The translations under genes were made by a program, and so were the position numbers. The notes beneath the pieces are model-generated. The model was not told the origin of the DNA, made no database searches, and saw only the letters and a list, made by a program, of their open reading frames with translations. This document shows, one piece after another, positions 1 to 6,068 of a DNA stretch of 6,068 nt; position 1 is the first letter of the stretch; the number at the start of each line of letters is the position of its first letter. Source of the stretch: a virus; IMG/VR virus record IMGVR_UViG_3300020026_000002, positions 1 through 6,068 of that record; one strand, 5' to 3'.

Positions 1-119
1 CAGATACGAATTTTCGCGTATAACGGCGATGTTGGAGGAGGCAAGATAAAGGTGTAAGATTTCCATCTACGGTAACATATTTATCCGAAATTTCTTCGGG
101 GTTGAACTGAATCTGTTTA
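1..119. repeat. Terminal direct repeat, left copy; exact duplicate of 5950..6068 (circular genome linearised with overlap)
   Basis: Base-by-base comparison: cagatacgaattttcgcg...gaactgaatctgttta occurs at 1..119 and again at 5950..6068 with no mismatch I could see. The repeat lies inside one continuous reading frame (Rep). Confidence 0.95.
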
Positions 120-664
120 GTGACATATTTAACGCAGTATCGAGCACGCTTGTGGGTGGCTTTTGCTAGCCACACGAAACCAAGGTCTCGAACAGCAGAA
201 CGAATAGTGTTATAGAGAACATTTGTGCCAAACAAAAAACCGTGAAAGTGCAACCGGGGCTCATTTCCTGTTTCCGGATGAGTACCGAACTCCTGAAAAA
301 AGGCATGTTTAAATGAGTGACCGAGCTTGTGGCGTAGGCGTTCATTGAATTTCCGAATAAACCAGGACGGATCAAGCAGGGCTTCGTTATAATGCCTTGG
401 AGCAATCGTTATTGTAATGAAAATAGCCTGCTGACTATCAGCCTTACAACGAGCAAGTTCACGCTCTAAGCGAACAAACCAGTCATTGCGTTGACGACGC
501 AAGCAATCTTCACACTTTCCACACGGAACCATCAACCATTGACGGGAGATGTCCCAAGGACGAAAAGCAAGCGCAGACTTGGCAACGTCAGAGCCATTTC
601 GACAAGGATTCTTCTTATCAAAGTAGCGACGGTTGCGTATCCATATGGGAGAAGAGCAAGGCAT
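1..664 (-). CDS. VP4: Replication initiation protein VP4 (HUH rolling-circle endonuclease), N-terminal part; continues at 5949 on the circle
   Basis: The minus-strand frame is open from ATG 664..662 to the window edge. It is missing from the ORF track because it has no in-window stop. Hand translation: MPCSSPIWIRNRRYFDKKNPCRNGSDVAKSALAFRPWDISRQWLMVPCGKCEDCLRRQRNDWFVRLERELARCKADSQQAIFITITIAPRHYNEALLDPSWFIRKFNERLRHKLGHSFKHAFFQEFGTHPETGNEPRLHFHGFLFGTNVLYNTIRSAVRDLGFVWLAKATHKRARYCVKYVTKQIQFNPEEISDKYVTVDGNLTPLSCLLQHRRYTRKFVS. Rolling-circle Rep motifs present: motif 1 FITITI (404..421), HUH motif HFHGFLF (230..250), and two-tyrosine motif YCVKYVTK (116..139). The MPC...P start and PCGKCxxC element are typical of Microviridae VP4. 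Confidence 0.9.
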   Translation of the reverse strand, partial: MPCSSPIWIRNRRYFDKKNPCRNGSDVAKSALAFRPWDISRQWLMVPCGKCEDCLRRQRNDWFVRLERELARCKADSQQAIFITITIAPRHYNEALLDPSWFIRKFNERLRHKLGHSFKHAFFQEFGTHPETGNEPRLHFHGFLFGTNVLYNTIRSAVRDLGFVWLAKATHKRARYCVKYVTKQIQFNPEEISDKYVTVDGNLTPLSCLLQHRRYTRKFVS

Positions 665-870
665 CAGAGTAAACTTCGAAGGCAATCAAATTTAATGCTA
701 GGATGATCAAGACGACAACGAATAAGGTAATCATTTGCAGGAATCTCGTCAGCAAACCAAGCAATAACAACTCGCTTCCTACCTCGATATGCACCAATAG
801 AATAGCGATAAGGGATGCTATTGATAGTAGGAAAAAACCTAGGTCTAAAATCGAAATAATCCATAATCAA
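664..870 (-). CDS. Doubtful 68-aa ORF upstream of Rep (TTG 870 or ATG 864), stop overlapping the Rep ATG
   Basis: The open frame reads MIMDYFDFRPRFF...IRCRLDHPSIKFDCLRSLL. Its TGA (664..666) overlaps the Rep ATG (662..664) as TGATG, a common coupling arrangement. Against it: the first codon is non-ATG, I recognised no motif, and a promoter-like -7 box lies inside its 3' end. Confidence 0.3.
   Translation of the reverse strand: MIMDYFDFRPRFFPTINSIPYRYSIGAYRGRKRVVIAWFADEIPANDYLIRCRLDHPSIKFDCLRSLL
687..694 (-). promoter_or_regulatory. Second TAnnTTTG (-7-like) box, TAAATTTG, 22 nt upstream of the Rep ATG
   Basis: Plus-strand caaattta at 687..694 gives TAAATTTG on the minus strand. Only a partial -33 element is present (GTTG at 716..719, 21-nt spacing). 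My manual scan found four TAnnTTTG matches on the minus strand (687, 1167, 1791, 5263). Two of them lie 22-26 nt upstream of start codons. The other two are inside genes and are likely chance matches. Confidence 0.3.
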
Positions 871-884
871 AAAAGTAATACCTT

Positions 885-913
885 GCGCTTCGAAAGACGG
901 TACTTTCGAGCGC
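885..913. other. Stable hairpin: 11 bp with a 1-nt bulge and a 6-nt loop
   Basis: gcgcttcgaaag (885..896) pairs with ctttcgagcgc (903..913), with t890 bulged and loop acggta (897..902). On the minus strand it lies about 20 nt upstream of ATG 864 and is followed, after 10 nt, by a T6 run. Confidence 0.6.
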
Positions 914-1002
914 GAAAACTGCTCCGTTACGCCGCTCGACGGCCTTAACGGCCGGGACGCTGCGCGTCTTCGAGCTCCATGGCTTCACTTCGCAACATGT
1001 AT

Positions 1003-1018
1003 ACCGAACAAGTTCGGT
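1003..1018. repeat. 16-bp near-perfect palindrome ACCGAACAAGTTCGGT
   Basis: accgaac (1003..1009) is the reverse complement of gttcggt (1012..1018). It sits in the noncoding region near a second small hairpin, gacgc-tgc-gcgtc (956..968). Confidence 0.7.
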
Positions 1019-1030
1019 GAGCTTAGAGAC

Positions 1031-1066
1031 AAAAACTCCCGGGGGAGAAGAAAACTCTCCCGGGAG
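1031..1066 (-). terminator. Rho-independent terminator candidate on the coding (minus) strand
   Basis: Minus-strand RNA: CUCCCGGGAGAG-UUUUCUU-CUCCCCCGGGAG-UUUUU. The arms 1055..1066 and 1036..1047 pair over 12 positions (11 Watson-Crick pairs and one C/A mismatch). The loop is 7 nt (1048..1054) and a T5 tract follows (1031..1035). On the plus strand no T tract follows the hairpin, so it would act on the minus strand only. Confidence 0.6.
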
Positions 1067-1111
1067 CTTCGTAATCAAAGAACCTTTCCACCAAGAGGGC
1101 GGGTTACAATT

Positions 1112-1435
1112 CTAGTTCCCTTTCCCTTCTTCTTTCGACGTGCTTTCATCGTAATCAAGATCAAGATCAAACATAAGGACAAGTGTATTATCGAAAAATT
1201 CAACACTAAAGCCAGAGAGGACTACGCAAGCATCAATAAGGTTGGCAATCTCCGAATGATCAACATAAAGCGAATCGCTAATATGCGAACTCTTAAAATA
1301 ATGCGCAACGGGGGAGCTGGCGATAGCATCGAGAGAGAGAGTGTTAAACTGACCATCCTTGATATGACCTATCTGGACAAGATCAATTTTGAGGGCCGGG
1401 TTAATTCGACGGATAACAACATGAATCTGCGTCAT
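1112..1435 (-). CDS. Hypothetical protein, 107 aa with acidic C-terminal tail (accessory, unknown function)
   Basis: ATG 1435 lies 11 nt after the preceding stop, and the ORF ends at TAG 1112. The composition is protein-like and the tail is acidic (DLDLDYDESTSKEEGKGN). A strong terminator-like hairpin follows 46 nt downstream. Confidence 0.6.
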   Translation of the reverse strand: MTQIHVVIRRINPALKIDLVQIGHIKDGQFNTLSLDAIASSPVAHYFKSSHISDSLYVDHSEIANLIDACVVLSGFSVEFFDNTLVLMFDLDLDYDESTSKEEGKGN

Positions 1436-1446
1436 AATAATAAGAT

Positions 1447-1764
1447 TTAAAAGATAGACTTGAATTTACAACAAAAACGGCACCAAGCGTTCGACTGATC
1501 TACCCAAAAATTATAACCTTCCGGGGTCATAGCAAACGGGAAAGACGTAGAAATGATGCTTTCGGCGCCCAAAATAGACGAATGGCATAGACGGCGAAGT
1601 TTAGTACGCAAATTATCGCGAAAAGATCGATGATTCGGATAAAATTTCTCAAAATTCGCTTTGTATACGGAAAATAAACCTTGGCGAACAAGCCATTCAG
1701 TGAACATGTATTCAACAACATCGACAGAGAGATCAGAGATCATAGACTTTTTATTTGCTTTCAT
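1447..1764 (-). CDS. Hypothetical protein, 105 aa (accessory, unknown function)
   Basis: ORF from ATG 1764 to a stop at 1447, with protein-like composition. It is preceded by the only sizeable AT-rich intergenic spacer, which carries a Bacteroidetes-type promoter match. The C-terminal segment FPFAMTPEGYNFWVDQSNAW resembles a T-x-E-G-x-x-F-W pattern I have seen in small phage proteins, but I cannot name a family. Confidence 0.65.
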   Translation of the reverse strand: MKANKKSMISDLSVDVVEYMFTEWLVRQGLFSVYKANFEKFYPNHRSFRDNLRTKLRRLCHSSILGAESIISTSFPFAMTPEGYNFWVDQSNAWCRFCCKFKSIF

Positions 1765-1790
1765 GGTAATATGGTTATTGGTTTACAATG

Positions 1791-1821
1791 CAAATATAAG
1801 GTAAAAAAGGCAAACAGCAAA
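1791..1821 (-). promoter_or_regulatory. Bacteroidetes-type promoter candidate: TTTG (-33) N19 TATATTTG (-7)
   Basis: The minus strand reads gcTTTGctgtttgccttttttacctTATATTTGcattg. The -33 TTTG is at 1818..1821 and the -7 box is at 1791..1798, a perfect match to TAnnTTTG. I counted a 19-nt spacer, and the box ends 26 nt upstream of ATG 1764. It sits in the 86-nt VP2-to-ORF spacer. Confidence 0.5.
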
Positions 1822-1850
1822 GCTCTAAAAGTCGAAAAAGTTGTTCAATT

Positions 1851-3107
1851 TCACCTTACATAACGACGGCTAGATTTTGTAGTACCGGCATAACGGCCAT
1901 CTTTGCCATAAATCTCCCTACTTTCATCGTAATCGACAGCAGTAGGACGTTTAGTTGCGGCCGTGCCGGCAATAGCCATAGCGCCAACCAAAGCAGTTCT
2001 AGCAAGGCTGTAACCAAAAGCATTCTTGCTTGAGCGATTCTGAAACCAGCGACCCGAGAGGTCTTGTTGACCTTCCGAGGCGGCGAGACCCATAAGCTTT
2101 TGATGAATCTGGCGGCCGGTCATTTTTATTGTCTTACCGGTAGGCTTGCCTTTTTCATCAACCTCGGGAACGTCAATCTCGGAGTCCCAATTGAGACTAA
2201 ACCACTCGCGAAGGTCAGCAAGGTTGACCTTGCGTATCTCAGACTCAACATTTAAGACATCGCCAGAGGCAGCAGATTCGTAAGCGGCGGCGAAATCCCG
2301 GGCGATTTGAGCGGCATAAACAGAATCAAAATACTTGTCGTTATACTTCTTAATCTGATTCGCTTCTTCGACATGTTTCGAATACATAGCAACAAAATCT
2401 TGAAACTTATACGTAGCCATAAGATCAGCGTACTCAGCATCAGCAGCATGAATATCAGCCAAAGCACGATTAAGACGAATCAACTCGGAAACGTTGTTAA
2501 TCTGATGTTCAAGAGACTTCTTCTCTAAATTGTCCATCTCTTTTCGCCAGTCTGCACTATGAGTGTTGCCTCTCATAAGTTCAGCCTCAGCATTATCGCG
2601 ATTAGCAGCAGCAGTGTTGCGATCGACCGAAGAGCGGGCCATCATATTCTGCGCAATAGCAGTAGGATCGCCGGGAGCAAAAACGCCAGGGCCAACAGGA
2701 GCGCCACCTGAAGGACCAGAAGCGGAAGGCATAGATGCGGAGCCACCCGACATTGTAGCGTTTACTCCGACACCTGAAGAACCTAAAACGGCTGCGGGGG
2801 TAACACCAGCCTTCAAATAACGGTCGAAAACCTTCGAAGGATCATTATAGGCATTTTCGTAATCAAATTGTTTCTGCCAATTAGCATAGGAAAGCTCAGA
2901 CTGCTTCTGCATCTGCTCGAGAGCATACTGTTGTTGAAGCTTCATCTGTTTTTGCTGAAATTTCCACTGGCGGCGAGCGTTCATGCCACCGAAAAGTTGA
3001 CCTAAAAAGCCGGTAATGAGGCCATTAGTTCCGGTAGAGGCAGCAGATTCACCAAGAGCGCGACCGAAAGAGGCGGAGGAGGCAGCAGCAGCAACGGGAA
3101 CAGCCAT
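1851..3107 (-). CDS. VP2: Minor capsid / DNA pilot protein VP2
   Basis: 418-aa ORF starting at ATG 3107. It has an Ala/Gly-rich N-terminus and a Q/K-rich probable coiled coil (RRQWKFQQKQMKLQQQYALEQMQKQ). The block YNDPSKVFDRYLKAGVTPAAVLG resembles the conserved P..Q..R...AG(L/V)NP element of microvirus VP2/H proteins. This is followed by a Gly/Ser/Pro-rich linker. Size and position fit the pilot protein. Confidence 0.82.
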   Translation of the reverse strand: MAVPVAAAASSASFGRALGESAASTGTNGLITGFLGQLFGGMNARRQWKFQQKQMKLQQQYALEQMQKQSELSYANWQKQFDYENAYNDPSKVFDRYLKAGVTPAAVLGSSGVGVNATMSGGSASMPSASGPSGGAPVGPGVFAPGDPTAIAQNMMARSSVDRNTAAANRDNAEAELMRGNTHSADWRKEMDNLEKKSLEHQINNVSELIRLNRALADIHAADAEYADLMATYKFQDFVAMYSKHVEEANQIKKYNDKYFDSVYAAQIARDFAAAYESAASGDVLNVESEIRKVNLADLREWFSLNWDSEIDVPEVDEKGKPTGKTIKMTGRQIHQKLMGLAASEGQQDLSGRWFQNRSSKNAFGYSLARTALVGAMAIAGTAATKRPTAVDYDESREIYGKDGRYAGTTKSSRRYVR

Positions 3108-3108
3108 A

Positions 3109-3411
3109 CTACAAGTTGATTAAATTATTAGAACGAATAATGTAGTCGACACGCACTGTGTCAATGTGAACACCACTACGCTGCATCCTAGCCTGGGCAG
3201 CACATGATGACAAGAAAAAAGCAGCTAAAGCAGCAACAATGGAAGAAACGAGCGTCCAAAAAGCCTTAGACTTATAAAAAGGTTGTTTTATGTCAGACAT
3301 GGGAATAAAATTTAAAGAACGATAGAAAAATGCGCGGCCTCTCCTGCAGTCGTTACCAATAACCTTCAGCAATTCACGAACTCTTGCAGAAGGGGTCCGC
3401 GCACGTAGCAT
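3109..3411 (-). CDS. Small membrane / putative lipoprotein ORF (100 aa from ATG 3411; more likely 63 aa from ATG 3300)
   Basis: From Met38 (ATG 3300..3298) the sequence is MSDIKQPFYKSKAFWTLVSSIVAALAAFFLSSCAAQ.... This gives a basic n-region, a hydrophobic h-region and an LSSC lipobox, the arrangement of a signal peptidase II substrate. The TAG stop 3109..3111 is 1 nt from the VP2 ATG. The upstream 37 codons are Arg-rich and coincide with a long imperfect stem (3331..3403), so the start site is uncertain. Confidence 0.6.
   Translation of the reverse strand: MLRARTPSARVRELLKVIGNDCRRGRAFFYRSLNFIPMSDIKQPFYKSKAFWTLVSSIVAALAAFFLSSCAAQARMQRSGVHIDTVRVDYIIRSNNLINL
3331..3403. other. Long imperfect inverted repeat / stem enclosing about 34 nt
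   Basis: tgcgcggcctctcctgcag (3331..3349) pairs with cttgcagaaggggtccgcgca (3383..3403). The pairing is 7 bp, a 1-nt bulge, 5 bp including one G-T, one mismatch, then 5-6 bp. It lies between the acidic ORF and the internal ATG 3300 of the membrane ORF. Confidence 0.45.
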
Positions 3412-3433
3412 ATATCTTCAAGTAAAGGATATA

Positions 3434-3730
3434 CTATTTTTCTTCAGAATTAGAGGGCGTTGAAGCGGGTTTGGGCTTATCGAGCTGAGAATCAATAAGT
3501 TCCTGACCAACCTCGAGGCCGTCGAACTTGTCCATACGGGAGAAGGAATTAGGATCAAAATCGATCTCAGGGTTGAATCTTTCGCCCTTGTCAAAGTCAG
3601 AGGGTTCGGCCGCCACGTCCGGACGACCGGGAAGAACTTCAACGGAACCGGAGCCGTCGAGAACAGAAAGAATGCGCTGACCGCGAGAAATATAGGCGGG
3701 AGCGTCTTCGAGAAGCCAATCAAGTGCCAT
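3434..3730 (-). CDS. Hypothetical acidic 98-aa protein; possible internal scaffolding protein (function not established)
   Basis: ATG 3730 lies 12 nt after the VP1 stop, and the ORF ends at TAG 3434. The composition is protein-like and D/E-rich (PEIDFDPNSFSRMDKFDGLEVGQELIDSQLD). The scaffolding role is guessed only from position next to the capsid gene and from size and charge. I recognised no motif. Confidence 0.6.
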   Translation of the reverse strand: MALDWLLEDAPAYISRGQRILSVLDGSGSVEVLPGRPDVAAEPSDFDKGERFNPEIDFDPNSFSRMDKFDGLEVGQELIDSQLDKPKPASTPSNSEEK

Positions 3731-3742
3731 ATAATCAACATA

Positions 3743-5539
3743 TTAACGGTTAGACAAACGGGTCGCAAATGTTTTATTAATCAAATTCTTCTTCTGAACT
3801 GCGTAGGAAATGTTTACAAAAAAATTGTCTTCCACCTTTGAACTGAAAGGCGAATTCACCTGCGACAAGTCAGTAAAAAGTATCGGGTGATAATAGGATT
3901 CAGGAAGAGAACCGGTACCGCTAGAAGTCAGGACAGCGCGCTGCTGAACCCAATAGGAGTAAAGTGGAGTACCGGAGCCACCTTCAGCCTCATCTTTGCT
4001 ATAAGCCTGGAGTTGACCAAGAACTTCATCATAAGACGAACGAAACTCATTAAAACACGGCTCGGAAGCAGAACTGGCGCCAGGATTGCCGTTAAACGCC
4101 AAACGAAAGGCTGGAACGTCCTGATAACCAATATCGTTATAAATAGGGTTGAAGTAATCGGAACCGGTATAGTTAAGATAATCAGGCTTGATAAAACTCC
4201 AATAATAAACAGGCCTAATGCTCAACATATCAATCATATAACCAGGTTCGCGGAAATAGTAAGACTGACGACGACCTAAGCGATCATTAAACGCAATAGA
4301 ACCTCCTTGTTGACCGAGAGGTTGGTTGCCAGAAAAATTATTATTTCCTGCTTGATTCATCACGATCTGCACGTTAACAGTTTGAGAGGCGCTAAAAAGA
4401 AGCTTGGGACGATCGACATGCTCAATCTTGGAGGCAAAAAATGTCTCCAGCCAGTCGCTGTAGCGGCTGCCTCCAGCACCAAGCAAATCCTTGTATTCCT
4501 GAAGACGAGAGGCAATAGCAAGCTGCGGAATAGTCGTGACACCCGACATGGAAACAGCAGACGAGGTACCTACGGGGATAAGACGGCTAAAACGGTCAGG
4601 ATTTGAAGGTACGACAGCCATAGGGTGGGCGACCAAGAAATAGGCCAAGCTCGAGGAAGAATTACTACTAGGAGCCGGTGAAGTTTGCGAAAGTATGCCA
4701 GTAGAGCCAAGCCGGGCTGCGCCCGGAAGAGTTGGGACAACGGGGAAACCATCAGCAGACGCGCCTCCACTCGCCAGGTCAGAACTAATAATTTGAAAAA
4801 AGAGATTGCCGCGATTGTATGTATTATTGCTGGAAGCTACAGAAGACGGATAAAACTGGCTCTCATAAAAGGCATCCAAAAACTCGAGATTACCATAACA
4901 TTGCGTGAAAAATCTAGAATCACCCGAGTTGTCAGGGTCAAGGATATACGAACTACCCGAGTAAATAAGCTTATTCGCCATAGGCCACGCAAAAGAATAA
5001 AGACTCCACTGCGAATAGCCGTAATAATTACGAACAATGTCCCAATAAGCTAGATACGTATCAGCGGTAGACCACTGACTAATGGAAGCGGATGCTGGGA
5101 GTTCAACATCAGTTAGCGGACTTCCACCGACGTTGTACTTATTGCCGACACGGAGCCAAGCAAAAAGCGAATTGGTGTAAGACGCACCGAAAAAATCAGA
5201 ATTCAAAGAACCCGTAGAGGGGGTTGTAGAACAAATCCAATTAAGGCTCAACTCGTTCATATCAAACTTACTACTGTTCGTCCGAAGTTCAGGGTGATAC
5301 AACTGAAGCGGCACCCAAAAGCGATGAAGTCGAACAGTGTAGGGGTTGAACGTCGGAACAGCGAGAGGATTACTGCGAACGTCAATACCCTGCTCAATAG
5401 ACACACGGTCTCGAGCGTTAATAAAATCAATTCGCACCGGATACAAAATACCCGGCGTGCACGTAAAGGCCTTACTCTCCGGAACATCGTAGCGAGAGTA
5501 GCCATTGACAGCGTGAGAAATAAAAGGTTGTTTTCCCAT
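3743..5539 (-). CDS. VP1: Major capsid protein VP1 (Microviridae F-protein family)
   Basis: 598-aa ORF from ATG 5539 to TAA 3743. The N-terminal block FTCTPGILYPVRIDFINARDRVSI...VRLHRFWVPLQL matches the layout of the conserved microvirus capsid N-terminus. The internal block RLQEYKDLLGAGGSRYSDWLETFF (4436..4507) matches the conserved (R/Q)xxE...GGxRYxE/D...F capsid motif. It starts 3 nt after the Rep stop. Confidence 0.93.
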   Translation of the reverse strand: MGKQPFISHAVNGYSRYDVPESKAFTCTPGILYPVRIDFINARDRVSIEQGIDVRSNPLAVPTFNPYTVRLHRFWVPLQLYHPELRTNSSKFDMNELSLNWICSTTPSTGSLNSDFFGASYTNSLFAWLRVGNKYNVGGSPLTDVELPASASISQWSTADTYLAYWDIVRNYYGYSQWSLYSFAWPMANKLIYSGSSYILDPDNSGDSRFFTQCYGNLEFLDAFYESQFYPSSVASSNNTYNRGNLFFQIISSDLASGGASADGFPVVPTLPGAARLGSTGILSQTSPAPSSNSSSSLAYFLVAHPMAVVPSNPDRFSRLIPVGTSSAVSMSGVTTIPQLAIASRLQEYKDLLGAGGSRYSDWLETFFASKIEHVDRPKLLFSASQTVNVQIVMNQAGNNNFSGNQPLGQQGGSIAFNDRLGRRQSYYFREPGYMIDMLSIRPVYYWSFIKPDYLNYTGSDYFNPIYNDIGYQDVPAFRLAFNGNPGASSASEPCFNEFRSSYDEVLGQLQAYSKDEAEGGSGTPLYSYWVQQRAVLTSSGTGSLPESYYHPILFTDLSQVNSPFSSKVEDNFFVNISYAVQKKNLINKTFATRLSNR

Positions 5540-5542
5540 AAA

Positions 5543-6068
5543 TTAAATAATTAGTTGAAGTTTATAATGATCTCTCCAAAACTGAAGAATATCCAAATCC
5601 AGCCAAGTGGGAGGGTCAAAGTCGGGCATCTTACGAGAGGAGGCGGAAAAACGCATTATTTGCTTCTGCTCCCACGTATATGACGCTCTACGGGATACGG
5701 CGGAATCGAGGCCAAACCGCTCAACGCACAGAGACACAATACGCTTAACCAGAGGAGACTCGCTAAAACGTGCATAAGAATCAGCAGCGGTAATCGAGCG
5801 TGTAACCTCGTCTTCCGGTTTGAGATATCTAAGATAGTACCGAGGAATCGAGTAATTATAATTGATACGCTTCTCAAAATCAAAATAAGACCACGACGAA
5901 ACACGAGCAGAAGGGCAAGGCATATAACCAAGAAAATCACCAACGCCAGCAGATACGAATTTTCGCGTATAACGGCGATGTTGGAGGAGGCAAGATAAAG
6001 GTGTAAGATTTCCATCTACGGTAACATATTTATCCGAAATTTCTTCGGGGTTGAACTGAATCTGTTTA
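5543..6068 (-). CDS. VP4: Replication initiation protein VP4, C-terminal part (5950..6068 duplicates 1..119)
   Basis: The same frame reads across the junction as ...RKFVSAGVGDFLGYMPCPSARVSSWSY... and ends at TAA 5543..5545. The 126-aa track ORF 5543..5923 is only the tail, starting from an internal Met. The full gene on the circle is complement(join(5543..5949,1..664)), 1071 nt, 356 aa. Confidence 0.9.
   Translation of the reverse strand, partial: KQIQFNPEEISDKYVTVDGNLTPLSCLLQHRRYTRKFVSAGVGDFLGYMPCPSARVSSWSYFDFEKRINYNYSIPRYYLRYLKPEDEVTRSITAADSYARFSESPLVKRIVSLCVERFGLDSAVSRRASYTWEQKQIMRFSASSRKMPDFDPPTWLDLDILQFWRDHYKLQLII
5950..6068. repeat. Terminal direct repeat, right copy (identical to 1..119)
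   Basis: Same comparison as for the left copy. The offset is 5949 bp, a multiple of 3, so the Rep frame is preserved across the junction. Confidence 0.95.

Follow-up and report, generated by a model that had tools for sequence, protein, structure and literature searches.

The closest described relatives of the DNA analysed here are microviruses listed as 'Family18' by Kirchberger et al. (2022, Table S1; MG945664, MG945141, MG945713, MG945730, MG945784 and MK765655), a family that emerges within their Family 4 and is delimited by at least 30% amino acid identity in VP1, the major capsid protein, over at least 80% of its length. The Family18 entries have genomes of 5.2–6.0 kb with 44–49% GC, and many of them were assigned to Alistipes (Rikenellaceae) from matches to clustered regularly interspaced short palindromic repeat (CRISPR) spacers with CrisprOpenDB (Kirchberger et al., 2022). 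The window, i.e., the whole stretch of 6,068 nucleotides (nt) that makes up positions 1 to 6,068 of IMG/VR record IMGVR_UViG_3300020026_000002, is very probably a contig that was assembled de novo from a single Family 18 genome, complete and circular, of 5,949 nt and opened inside the gene for the replication initiation protein Rep (VP4). As a genome it matters little, being one more sequence in a gut microvirus clade with hundreds of members; the one point of wider interest in this otherwise ordinary genome is an open reading frame (ORF) of 119 amino acids that lies within Rep in frame +1.

Relationship to described microviruses

The order of genes in the unit is Rep (VP4), VP1, ORF98, ORF100, the DNA pilot protein VP2, ORF105, ORF107, a structured intergenic region and ORF66, after which Rep follows again. 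All constrained ORFs of the unit are on the minus strand, and the small circular genome falls within the range of approximately 4–7 kb of the Microviridae. Gene order and gene sizes are the same in the window as in MG945664.1, MG945141.1 and MG945713.1 from pig faeces and in MK765655.1. The small ORFs and the unannotated +1 ORF within Rep are also common to the window and these relatives, while ORF66 and a 108-nt non-coding block occur in some relatives but not in others.

VP1 (598 amino acids, positions 3743–5539, minus strand), a major capsid protein of the Phage_F jelly-roll type, matched PF02305 (Phage_F) with 40.3 bits against a cut-off of 25, as anticipated in a preliminary description made from the sequence alone, and PHROG 514 ('major head protein') at 6e-25. 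The VP1 profile also matched the microvirus capsids 8DES and 9CGM over the C-terminal core only (profile positions ~320–520). VP2 (418 amino acids, positions 1851–3107, minus strand) was assigned from PHROG 8689 ('pilot protein for DNA ejection'); this match is modest (1.3e-8), which counts against the assignment, and homologues of VP2 carry the annotation DNA pilot protein in MK765655, PP511663 and PQ006809. Ratios of nonsynonymous to synonymous substitution (dN/dS) were 0.06–0.08 for VP1 and 0.2 for VP2. On the matches of VP1, VP2 and Rep to microvirus profiles, the unit is a member of the Microviridae. The preliminary description had spoken of a full Microviridae gene set made up of VP1, VP2 and VP4; this core was found on one strand, but the set is not complete with it, as five more constrained ORFs and the overprinted ORF are present.

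Over 100% of its length, VP1 of the window is 80% identical to VP1 of MG945664 (L001 among the related genomes compared), 68% to that of MG945141 (L012) and 68% to that of MK765655 (Tortoise microvirus 102), values far above the threshold that delimits the family. The range among Family 18 relatives was 68–80% for VP1 and 63–85% for Rep. In a VP1 tree (a simple neighbour-joining distance tree without bootstrap), the window adjoined MG945664 inside the Family 18 clade and apart from the BMV proviruses, gokushoviruses and phiX174. Full-length matches to VP1 (58–80% identity) were found in 72 GenBank phage records and full-length matches to Rep in 67, the sources being faeces of pig, musk deer, civet, rodent, lemur, tortoise, bird and human. 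A large protein collection contained more than 120 clusters with VP1 of at least 80% identity (best 94%) and 1,280 matches at E<=1e-10, mostly on contigs of 5.9–6.2 kb, and a scan of IMG/VR gave 177 relatives of Rep. By sequence similarity the window genome thus belongs to a densely sampled and already delimited family and is a new genome of a known clade rather than a new lineage. The preliminary description had noted the divergence of VP1 from phiX174 and gokushovirus references, which was confirmed (15–16% identity), and had taken it as a possible sign of a poorly sampled lineage, which was contradicted by the numbers of relatives given above; a lineage may lie far from the long-known references and still be well sampled. 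The genome is nevertheless distinct, since the best whole-genome match among the genomes compared was ~86% identical over 91% of the unit and no record of the exact VP1 was found, the best match being 94% identical.

Among better known microviruses, the Alpavirinae (BMV1–7 proviruses of Bacteroides and Prevotella; Krupovic and Forterre, 2011) resemble the window in genome size (~6 kb), in a host order of Bacteroidales, which is probable for the window, in having only VP1, VP2 and VP4 as recognisable genes, in the order VP4–VP1–VP2 with unassigned ORFs after VP1, and in small ORFs that bear a lipobox (gp2 of BMV1 and BMV2). Membership in this group, which layout and habitat would fit, was rejected after comparison with the proteins of BMV1–4 (PMC3091885, Table S3). 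Thus, VP1 of the window is only 15–21% identical to alpavirus VP1 (21% at E 1e-6 in BLASTP with BMV1; 15–18% in the alignment) and lies in a separate clade, and Rep has 356 amino acids as opposed to ~500–580, with only ~60 residues of the window Rep (40–101) aligning with VP4 of BMV1 and BMV4. In addition, the BMV genomes are integrated, whereas no integrated relative of the window was found among 185,579 species genomes in a scan limited to two peptide patterns.

The Gokushovirinae (Chp2, SpV4, phiMH2K; capsids 8DES and 9CGM) share with the window the Phage_F core, a VP2 pilot protein, a Rep of ~300–350 amino acids with a two-tyrosine motif III and the absence of external scaffold and spike genes. 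They differ from it in VP1 (15–16% identity, separate clade) and in VP3, VP5 and VP8, homologues of which were not detectable in the window. Likewise, phiX174 (Bullavirinae) resembles the window in a circular, T-rich coding strand, in a Rep of the rolling-circle type that carries HUH and YxxKY motifs, in a Rep gene that is drawn across the start of the record, and in genes read out of frame with Rep (B within gene A, and K overlapping gene A). VP1 of the window is, however, 16% identical to F, with no match to F at E<0.01 in a search of the PDB, and homologues of D, G, J, C and E are missing from the window.

The Rep gene across the contig junction

Comparison of the ends of the window for exact matches confirmed that bases 1–119 are identical to bases 5950–6068, 119 nt being the longest exact terminal overlap. 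The second copy (5950–6068) is a duplicate to be collapsed, after which a unit of 5,949 nt (3 × 1983) remains. The first copy (1–119) lies within Rep codons 182–222 and covers the most conserved stretch of the Rep gene.

Circular ORF calling on the collapsed unit gave a Rep gene on the minus strand that starts with an ATG at 664, wraps at 5949/1 and stops at 5543, and reproduced to the base the coordinates of Rep, VP1 and VP2 in the preliminary description. The N-terminal part (1–664, minus strand) comprises codons 1–221 and the first base of codon 222, which spans the junction, and the C-terminal part (5543–5949, minus strand) comprises the rest of codon 222 to the stop. With linear ORF calling, only a 126-amino acid tail was seen (5543–5923). 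Joining of the ends, as had been proposed, restored a protein of 356 amino acids with a CxxCxxC cluster (residues 48–54, nt 523–503) and the three rolling-circle motifs, namely motif I, FITITI (residues 82–87, nt 421–404), the HUH motif II, HFHGFLF (residues 139–145, nt 250–230), and the YxxKY motif III with two tyrosines, YCVKYVTK (residues 176–183, nt 139–116). The Rep motifs agree with the superfamily I pattern that is listed for microviruses in Fig. S1 of PMC3091885.

Profile searches placed Rep among microvirus-type replication proteins, with 37.7 bits against PF23343 (REP_ORF2-G2P; cut-off 27.8) and 6e-20 against PHROG 942 ('replication initiation protein'). In contrast, the match to Pfam Phage_GPA that the preliminary description had looked for was below the cut-off (15.7 against 31.4 bits) and counts against that part of the proposal. 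The Phage_GPA profile is built on gene A proteins; it was rejected as the family of the window Rep on account of this score, and the assignment as Rep stands. No relative of Rep was found in the PDB.

The joined protein aligned without interruption over residues 1–356 with VP4 of closed circular GenBank genomes (up to 85% identity, MG945141), and this full-length alignment to uninterrupted VP4 genes shows the frame across the junction to be genuine rather than accidental. In the best 80 of the 177 IMG/VR relatives (87–95% identity), Rep was at interior contig positions, and coverage extended to residue 354–356 in 79 of them, the remaining locus ending at 346. The dN/dS ratio of Rep was 0.09–0.15. 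The split of the gene is thus a linearisation artefact, and a routine one with textbook precedent, as Rep is also drawn across the start of the record in phiX174 (gene A), phiMH2K, PP511663 and PQ006809. For circular contigs, the practical consequence is that the overlap should be collapsed and the sequence rotated before genes are called.

A second reading frame within Rep

A conserved ORF of 119 amino acids was noted in frame +1 of Rep over Rep codons 200–319 (5656–6015, minus strand; on the circle, from 66 across the junction to 5656). The product is hydrophobic and predicted to be helical and of membrane type, with a conserved PPYP tail. Each of the 83 distinct Rep homologues that aligned without gaps has kept the ORF open from the ATG (119 amino acids in 81 and 116 in 2), although these homologues are relatives and not independent samples; carriers of the ORF were L001–L005, L007–L012 and 80 IMG/VR loci.

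Synonymous differences in Rep dropped approximately 3.5-fold over this stretch, from 0.45 outside to 0.13 inside codons 189–310. Because a pooled sliding window can be biased by the dropout of distant relatives, the scan was redone for each relative with full-length ungapped alignments. In the individual comparisons, values fell from 0.44–0.52 (codons 1–185) to 0.08–0.20 (codons 200–318) and returned to ~0.4 over codons 320–355 in four of five relatives (0.21 in L005), with Fisher p values of 1e-6 to 1.5e-11 for five relatives and 2e-3 for L008, the Rep of which is 63% identical. At the left end of the window, ~90 bases hardly varied among relatives, even at synonymous sites. A fit with two change points placed the suppressed zone at Rep codons 189–310, i.e., from 11 codons before the ATG of the +1 ORF to within 10 codons of its stop.

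Several properties of the zone were those of a second constrained frame. Thus, amino acid identity of Rep was lower rather than higher within the zone, and differences at Rep codon positions 1, 2 and 3 were 0.11, 0.07 and 0.12 inside as opposed to 0.06, 0.03 and 0.44 outside, the pattern expected if position 3 of Rep is the middle position, and position 1 the wobble position, of another constrained frame. Identity in frame +1 was 0.76–0.90 in the zone for six relatives down to 85% Rep identity and 0.53 for L001, whereas the corresponding values in a control region were 0.42–0.58 and 0.36. Changes that are synonymous in Rep and nonsynonymous in frame +1 occurred at 0.19 per site in the overlap compared with 0.66 and 0.55 in the flanks. 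Sequence comparison, in short, showed a dual-coding signature over Rep codons 200–319. The ORF was also found at greater distance: Dulem virus 210 (L009), the Rep of which is 41% identical, has a collinear homologous +1 ORF of 121 amino acids (33% identity over 72 amino acids, E 9e-9), and long +1 ORFs with a hydrophobic product are located correspondingly in two further distant members.

The peptide matched 29 GenBank genomes, always within an annotated Rep and never as an annotated product itself, and only 5 of 5.8 billion protein clusters; it had no Pfam or PHROG family. No description of it was found in the literature, coverage of which was incomplete; overprinted genes are omitted from the analysis of Kirchberger et al. 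(2022). From the evidence of constraint, the +1 ORF is probably a real protein-coding gene, whatever its function.

Several results weigh against this conclusion. The length of the ORF is insignificant, since in Rep with shuffled synonymous codons the longest open stretch in frame +1 was 112 ± 35 codons as opposed to 119 (P = 0.31), and the permutation test of ORF length was accordingly dropped as evidence. The OLGenie-style ratio of nonsynonymous–nonsynonymous to nonsynonymous–synonymous changes (NN/NS) was 0.39 in the ORF compared with 0.50 in an upstream control, which is not decisive. Leucine, arginine and serine make up 44% of the peptide, and a composition rich in these residues has been linked to non-coding or overprinted ORFs (PMC9865509). 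An AlphaFold model was helical but of low confidence (predicted local distance difference test score 67, predicted template modelling score 0.28).

An alternative explanation, which is unlikely, is that suppression of synonymous change over Rep codons ~189–310 reflects a cis-acting nucleic acid element, such as an origin, a packaging signal or a structure, and that the +1 ORF is an untranslated by-product. The viral-strand origin of phiX174 is inside gene A (rep_origin at 4306), conserved non-coding ORFs that overlap Rep have been warned of (PMC9865509), and both the ease with which long +1 ORFs arise by chance in the window Rep and the bias of this one towards leucine, arginine and serine are as such an explanation would have it. 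However, the suppressed zone extends over ~360 nt, is nearly coextensive with the +1 ORF and is outside the Rep motifs; folding of the stretch is unremarkable (z = -0.9); position 1 of Rep, the wobble position of frame +1, varies more in the zone while amino acid identity of Rep falls; and both the ATG and the stop of the ORF are kept in 83 of 83 relatives, with a collinear homologue at 41% Rep identity. These observations argue for the protein-coding reading of the +1 ORF.

Comparable ORFs have been noted in other microviruses. Thus, orfN of phiMH2K, which bears the annotation 'similar to phiX174 E and K', is likewise in frame +1 of Rep and has a hydrophobic segment, but it covers Rep codons 116–225 of 315 as opposed to 200–319 of 356 in the window and has no sequence similarity to the window ORF. 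OG63 of the reekeekeeviruses, which belong to another lineage, is an ORF at the end of Rep, again without sequence similarity to the window +1 ORF. In BLASTP comparisons with phiX174 B, K and E and with phiMH2K orfN, no similarity was found.

A tentative and rather improbable proposal is that translation of the +1 ORF yields a small membrane protein through which the Family 18 microviruses of Bacteroidales such as Alistipes would lyse their hosts, as a single-gene 'protein antibiotic'. No annotated lysis gene was noted in Family 18, and no peptidase is encoded in the window genome. For host lysis by microviruses outside the phiX174 group, the +1 ORF offers a concrete and testable candidate. 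Aside from that role, it would be a conserved predicted membrane protein, invisible in databases, of a clade that infects abundant gut Bacteroidales.

Topology and assembly of the contig

Comparison with relatives showed the unit to be circular in topology and the redundancy of 1–119 to be an assembly overlap of a circular contig rather than a biological terminus. In L002 and L003, two IMG/VR genomes ~88–90% identical to the window, the homologue of 5550–6068 continues into that of 120–500 in the interior of the contig. Among 29 complete related contigs, the distance from the start to the Rep ATG ranged from 563 to 5,424 nt, consistent with arbitrary breakpoints, and overlap lengths were 121 nt in 20 contigs and 0 in three, with single contigs at 119, 120, 99, 97, 80 and 64 nt. 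Since the overlap varies among contigs of relatives, the redundancy is a property of the assemblies and not of the DNA. L005 (12,995 nt) and L007 (9,153 nt) are head-to-tail concatemers with 1.5–2.2 copies of the same gene set and without host flanks; both arose either when a circle was assembled into a concatemer or when products of rolling-circle replication were sequenced. The GenBank relatives were all deposited as circular. The joined Rep, the permuted relatives, the concatemers and the profile matches therefore agree with the reading, made beforehand from the sequence, of a circular microvirus genome in which Rep is cut by the linearisation point.

A contig with a start in common with the window was also found. 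L004 (IMGVR_UViG_3300020026_000005) begins at the same base, with an identical 119-mer and the same 119-nt overlap, although the two genomes are only ~86% identical overall, compared with 95% for Rep (97% over residues 1–223). A probable reason is that the two contigs were opened at one and the same highly conserved node of the assembly graph, since 1–119 is the most conserved Rep stretch among co-occurring strains.

It weighs against the reading of a complete circular genome that closure of the window molecule is drawn from the overlap and from relatives, and that strains resembling it occur together. A contig that is a chimera of co-occurring strains, with mosaic relationships that are an artefact of assembly, is improbable, although dozens of strains with 77–86% genome identity are present in the same sample series. 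Mosaicism itself is evident from the comparisons. Thus, VP1 is closest to that of MG945664 (80%), the Rep of which is only 74% identical, whereas Rep is closest to that of MG945141 (85%), the VP1 of which is only 68–71% identical; VP2 is nearer to that of L001 than to that of L005, and for Rep the reverse is true. The exact 119-mer and 95% Rep identity of L004 alongside a genome identity of only ~86% would also fit a chimera. On the other hand, similar mosaicism was seen between independently deposited GenBank genomes, for which real recombination is at least as likely an explanation, and all ORFs of the window are intact and syntenic. The mosaic relationships may reflect either recombination between modules or assembly chimerism.

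An integrated provirus of the kind found in the Alpavirinae (BMV-like), or a piece of a larger replicon, is very improbable. In its favour, some microviruses of Bacteroidales are temperate and insert at dif-like sites although they encode no integrase (PMC3091885). The window, however, has no host flank, the presence of which had been named in advance as evidence against a free circle; the ends of the unit join to a closed circle; among related contigs, the longest consist of concatemers alone; and VP1 has only the low identity to BMV proviruses given above. Moreover, no integrated relative of VP1 was found among the 185,579 bacterial and archaeal species genomes (a VP1-alignment scan with only two peptide patterns and of limited sensitivity). 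Finally, a linear molecule that ends in a true direct terminal repeat of 119 nt, to which the identical ends of the window and the common start and 119-mer of L004 might be attributed, has a negligible probability in view of the arbitrary permutation of related contigs with overlaps of 0 to 121 nt, the concatemers L005 and L007 that read through the junction, an essential gene that is cut by the ends and intact once they are joined, the circular deposition of GenBank relatives, and the better explanation of the L004 start as a shared assembly-graph node. The window is thus best read as a circular contig opened inside Rep.

Non-coding region and proposed mode of replication

Between ORF107 and ORF66, the region 865–1111 was strongly structured as single-stranded DNA (ssDNA), with a folding energy of -49.7 kcal/mol compared with -33.7 ± 3.6 kcal/mol for shuffled sequences (z = -4.5). 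A GC-rich hairpin followed by a T-run (1029–1066, minus strand) lies ~45 nt past the stop of ORF107 and was supported by covariation: 87% of cells were paired, 7 of 12 pairs were changed on both sides, and the value exceeded those of 500 of 500 shuffles and of all slid controls. By direct reading of the alignment, the T-run was present in six of seven relatives. From its sequence, this hairpin looks like an intrinsic terminator or else like an ssDNA hairpin. A second small hairpin, CCGAA-cttg-TTCGG (1004–1017, minus strand), was noted by direct reading and corresponds in relatives to CCGGC-ttt-GCCGG, with two compensatory pairs; this rests on direct reading only, as the formal pair count failed on a one-base misalignment caused by loop length.

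In alignments, a non-coding block of 108 nt (884–991, minus strand; 61% GC) with three internal hairpins was nearly invariant among relatives that differ at ~45% of synonymous sites, while a different sequence was found at this place in MG945141. The block is the likeliest candidate for the replication origin. No Rfam match was found at E<=1, and scans for sigma-70 promoters and terminators gave results at chance level, the covarying hairpin with its T-run being among the features missed.

The following mode of action would be consistent with these features. The minus strand, which is T-rich (32.4% T) and carries the genes, would be the packaged viral strand, as in the family. VP2 would pilot the ssDNA into the host, which is probably a bacterium of the order Bacteroidales, with Alistipes suggested by the CRISPR spacers that match close relatives. 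Enzymes of the host would convert the entering strand to a double-stranded replicative form, and Rep, as an HUH protein with two tyrosines, would nick the viral strand at the origin for rolling-circle replication, with the 108-nt block and the hairpins as the likeliest origin and terminator signals. Progeny ssDNA would be packaged in T=1 capsids of VP1, as family membership suggests. The membrane-type protein of 119 amino acids would be read in frame +1 of Rep in the manner in which phiX174 reads B and K, and the best guess at its role is that of a lysis or membrane-targeting factor; more speculatively, it may act in lysis or at the envelope together with, or in place of, the predicted lipoprotein ORF100. 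It weighs against this account that the ssDNA nature, origin, terminator and packaging strand of the window genome are all inferred.

Small open reading frames

Translated matches to the five small minus-strand ORFs were found at the same positions in relatives, and dN/dS was below 1 in the frame of each ORF as opposed to ~1 or above in off-frame controls. The five ORFs are thus under purifying selection. None of them (ORF98, ORF100, ORF105, ORF107 and ORF66) had a Pfam or PHROG match.

ORF98 (3434–3730, minus strand; 98 amino acids, dN/dS 0.06) is acidic and directly downstream of VP1, with size and position kept in L005, L007, L001 and L008. By this position it is a candidate for a VP3-like internal scaffolding protein, such as has been proposed at the equivalent position in related groups (PMC3091885, PMC3394797). 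ORF100 (3109–3411, minus strand; dN/dS 0.11–0.13) is a predicted small lipoprotein. Its true start may be at 3300 rather than 3411, since the signal peptide, with the lipobox FFL-S-S-C, follows Met38. The lipobox cysteine was invariant in the 86 homologues that cover the motif, FFL[ASTV][SA]C. Small ORFs of BMV1 and BMV2 (gp2; PMC3091885, Table S3), which are unrelated alpavirus proviruses, carry ...LVSSC and ...LCVSC, and small lipoproteins may be recurrent in microviruses of Bacteroidales.

ORF105 (1447–1764, minus strand) is fast-evolving, with dN/dS of 0.36–0.38 compared with ~1 off-frame and with counterparts of 35–45% amino acid identity at the corresponding position of L005 and L001. 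ORF107 (1112–1435, minus strand; dN/dS 0.25–0.28), the last gene of the block that begins with VP1, had 55–59% amino acid identity in the same two genomes. ORF66 (664–864, minus strand; dN/dS 0.2) is upstream of Rep, its stop overlapping the Rep ATG as TGATG. It was present in L005 (79% amino acid identity), where it is called as a gene, in L007, in L012 and in L008 (36%), and had no match in MG945664 (region 5762–6039). The gene at the position of ORF66 in L007 (6431–6754) encodes 107 amino acids.

A search of the window for repeats gave short repeats at chance level only. One such family, 'CTTTCATCGTAAT' (D1; 1132–1155 and 1910–1933), reflects a DYDES peptide encoded by near-identical DNA in the C-terminal regions of VP2 (...AVDYDESREIY...) and ORF107 (...LDYDESTSKEE...), which could be a common binding motif or a chance resemblance.

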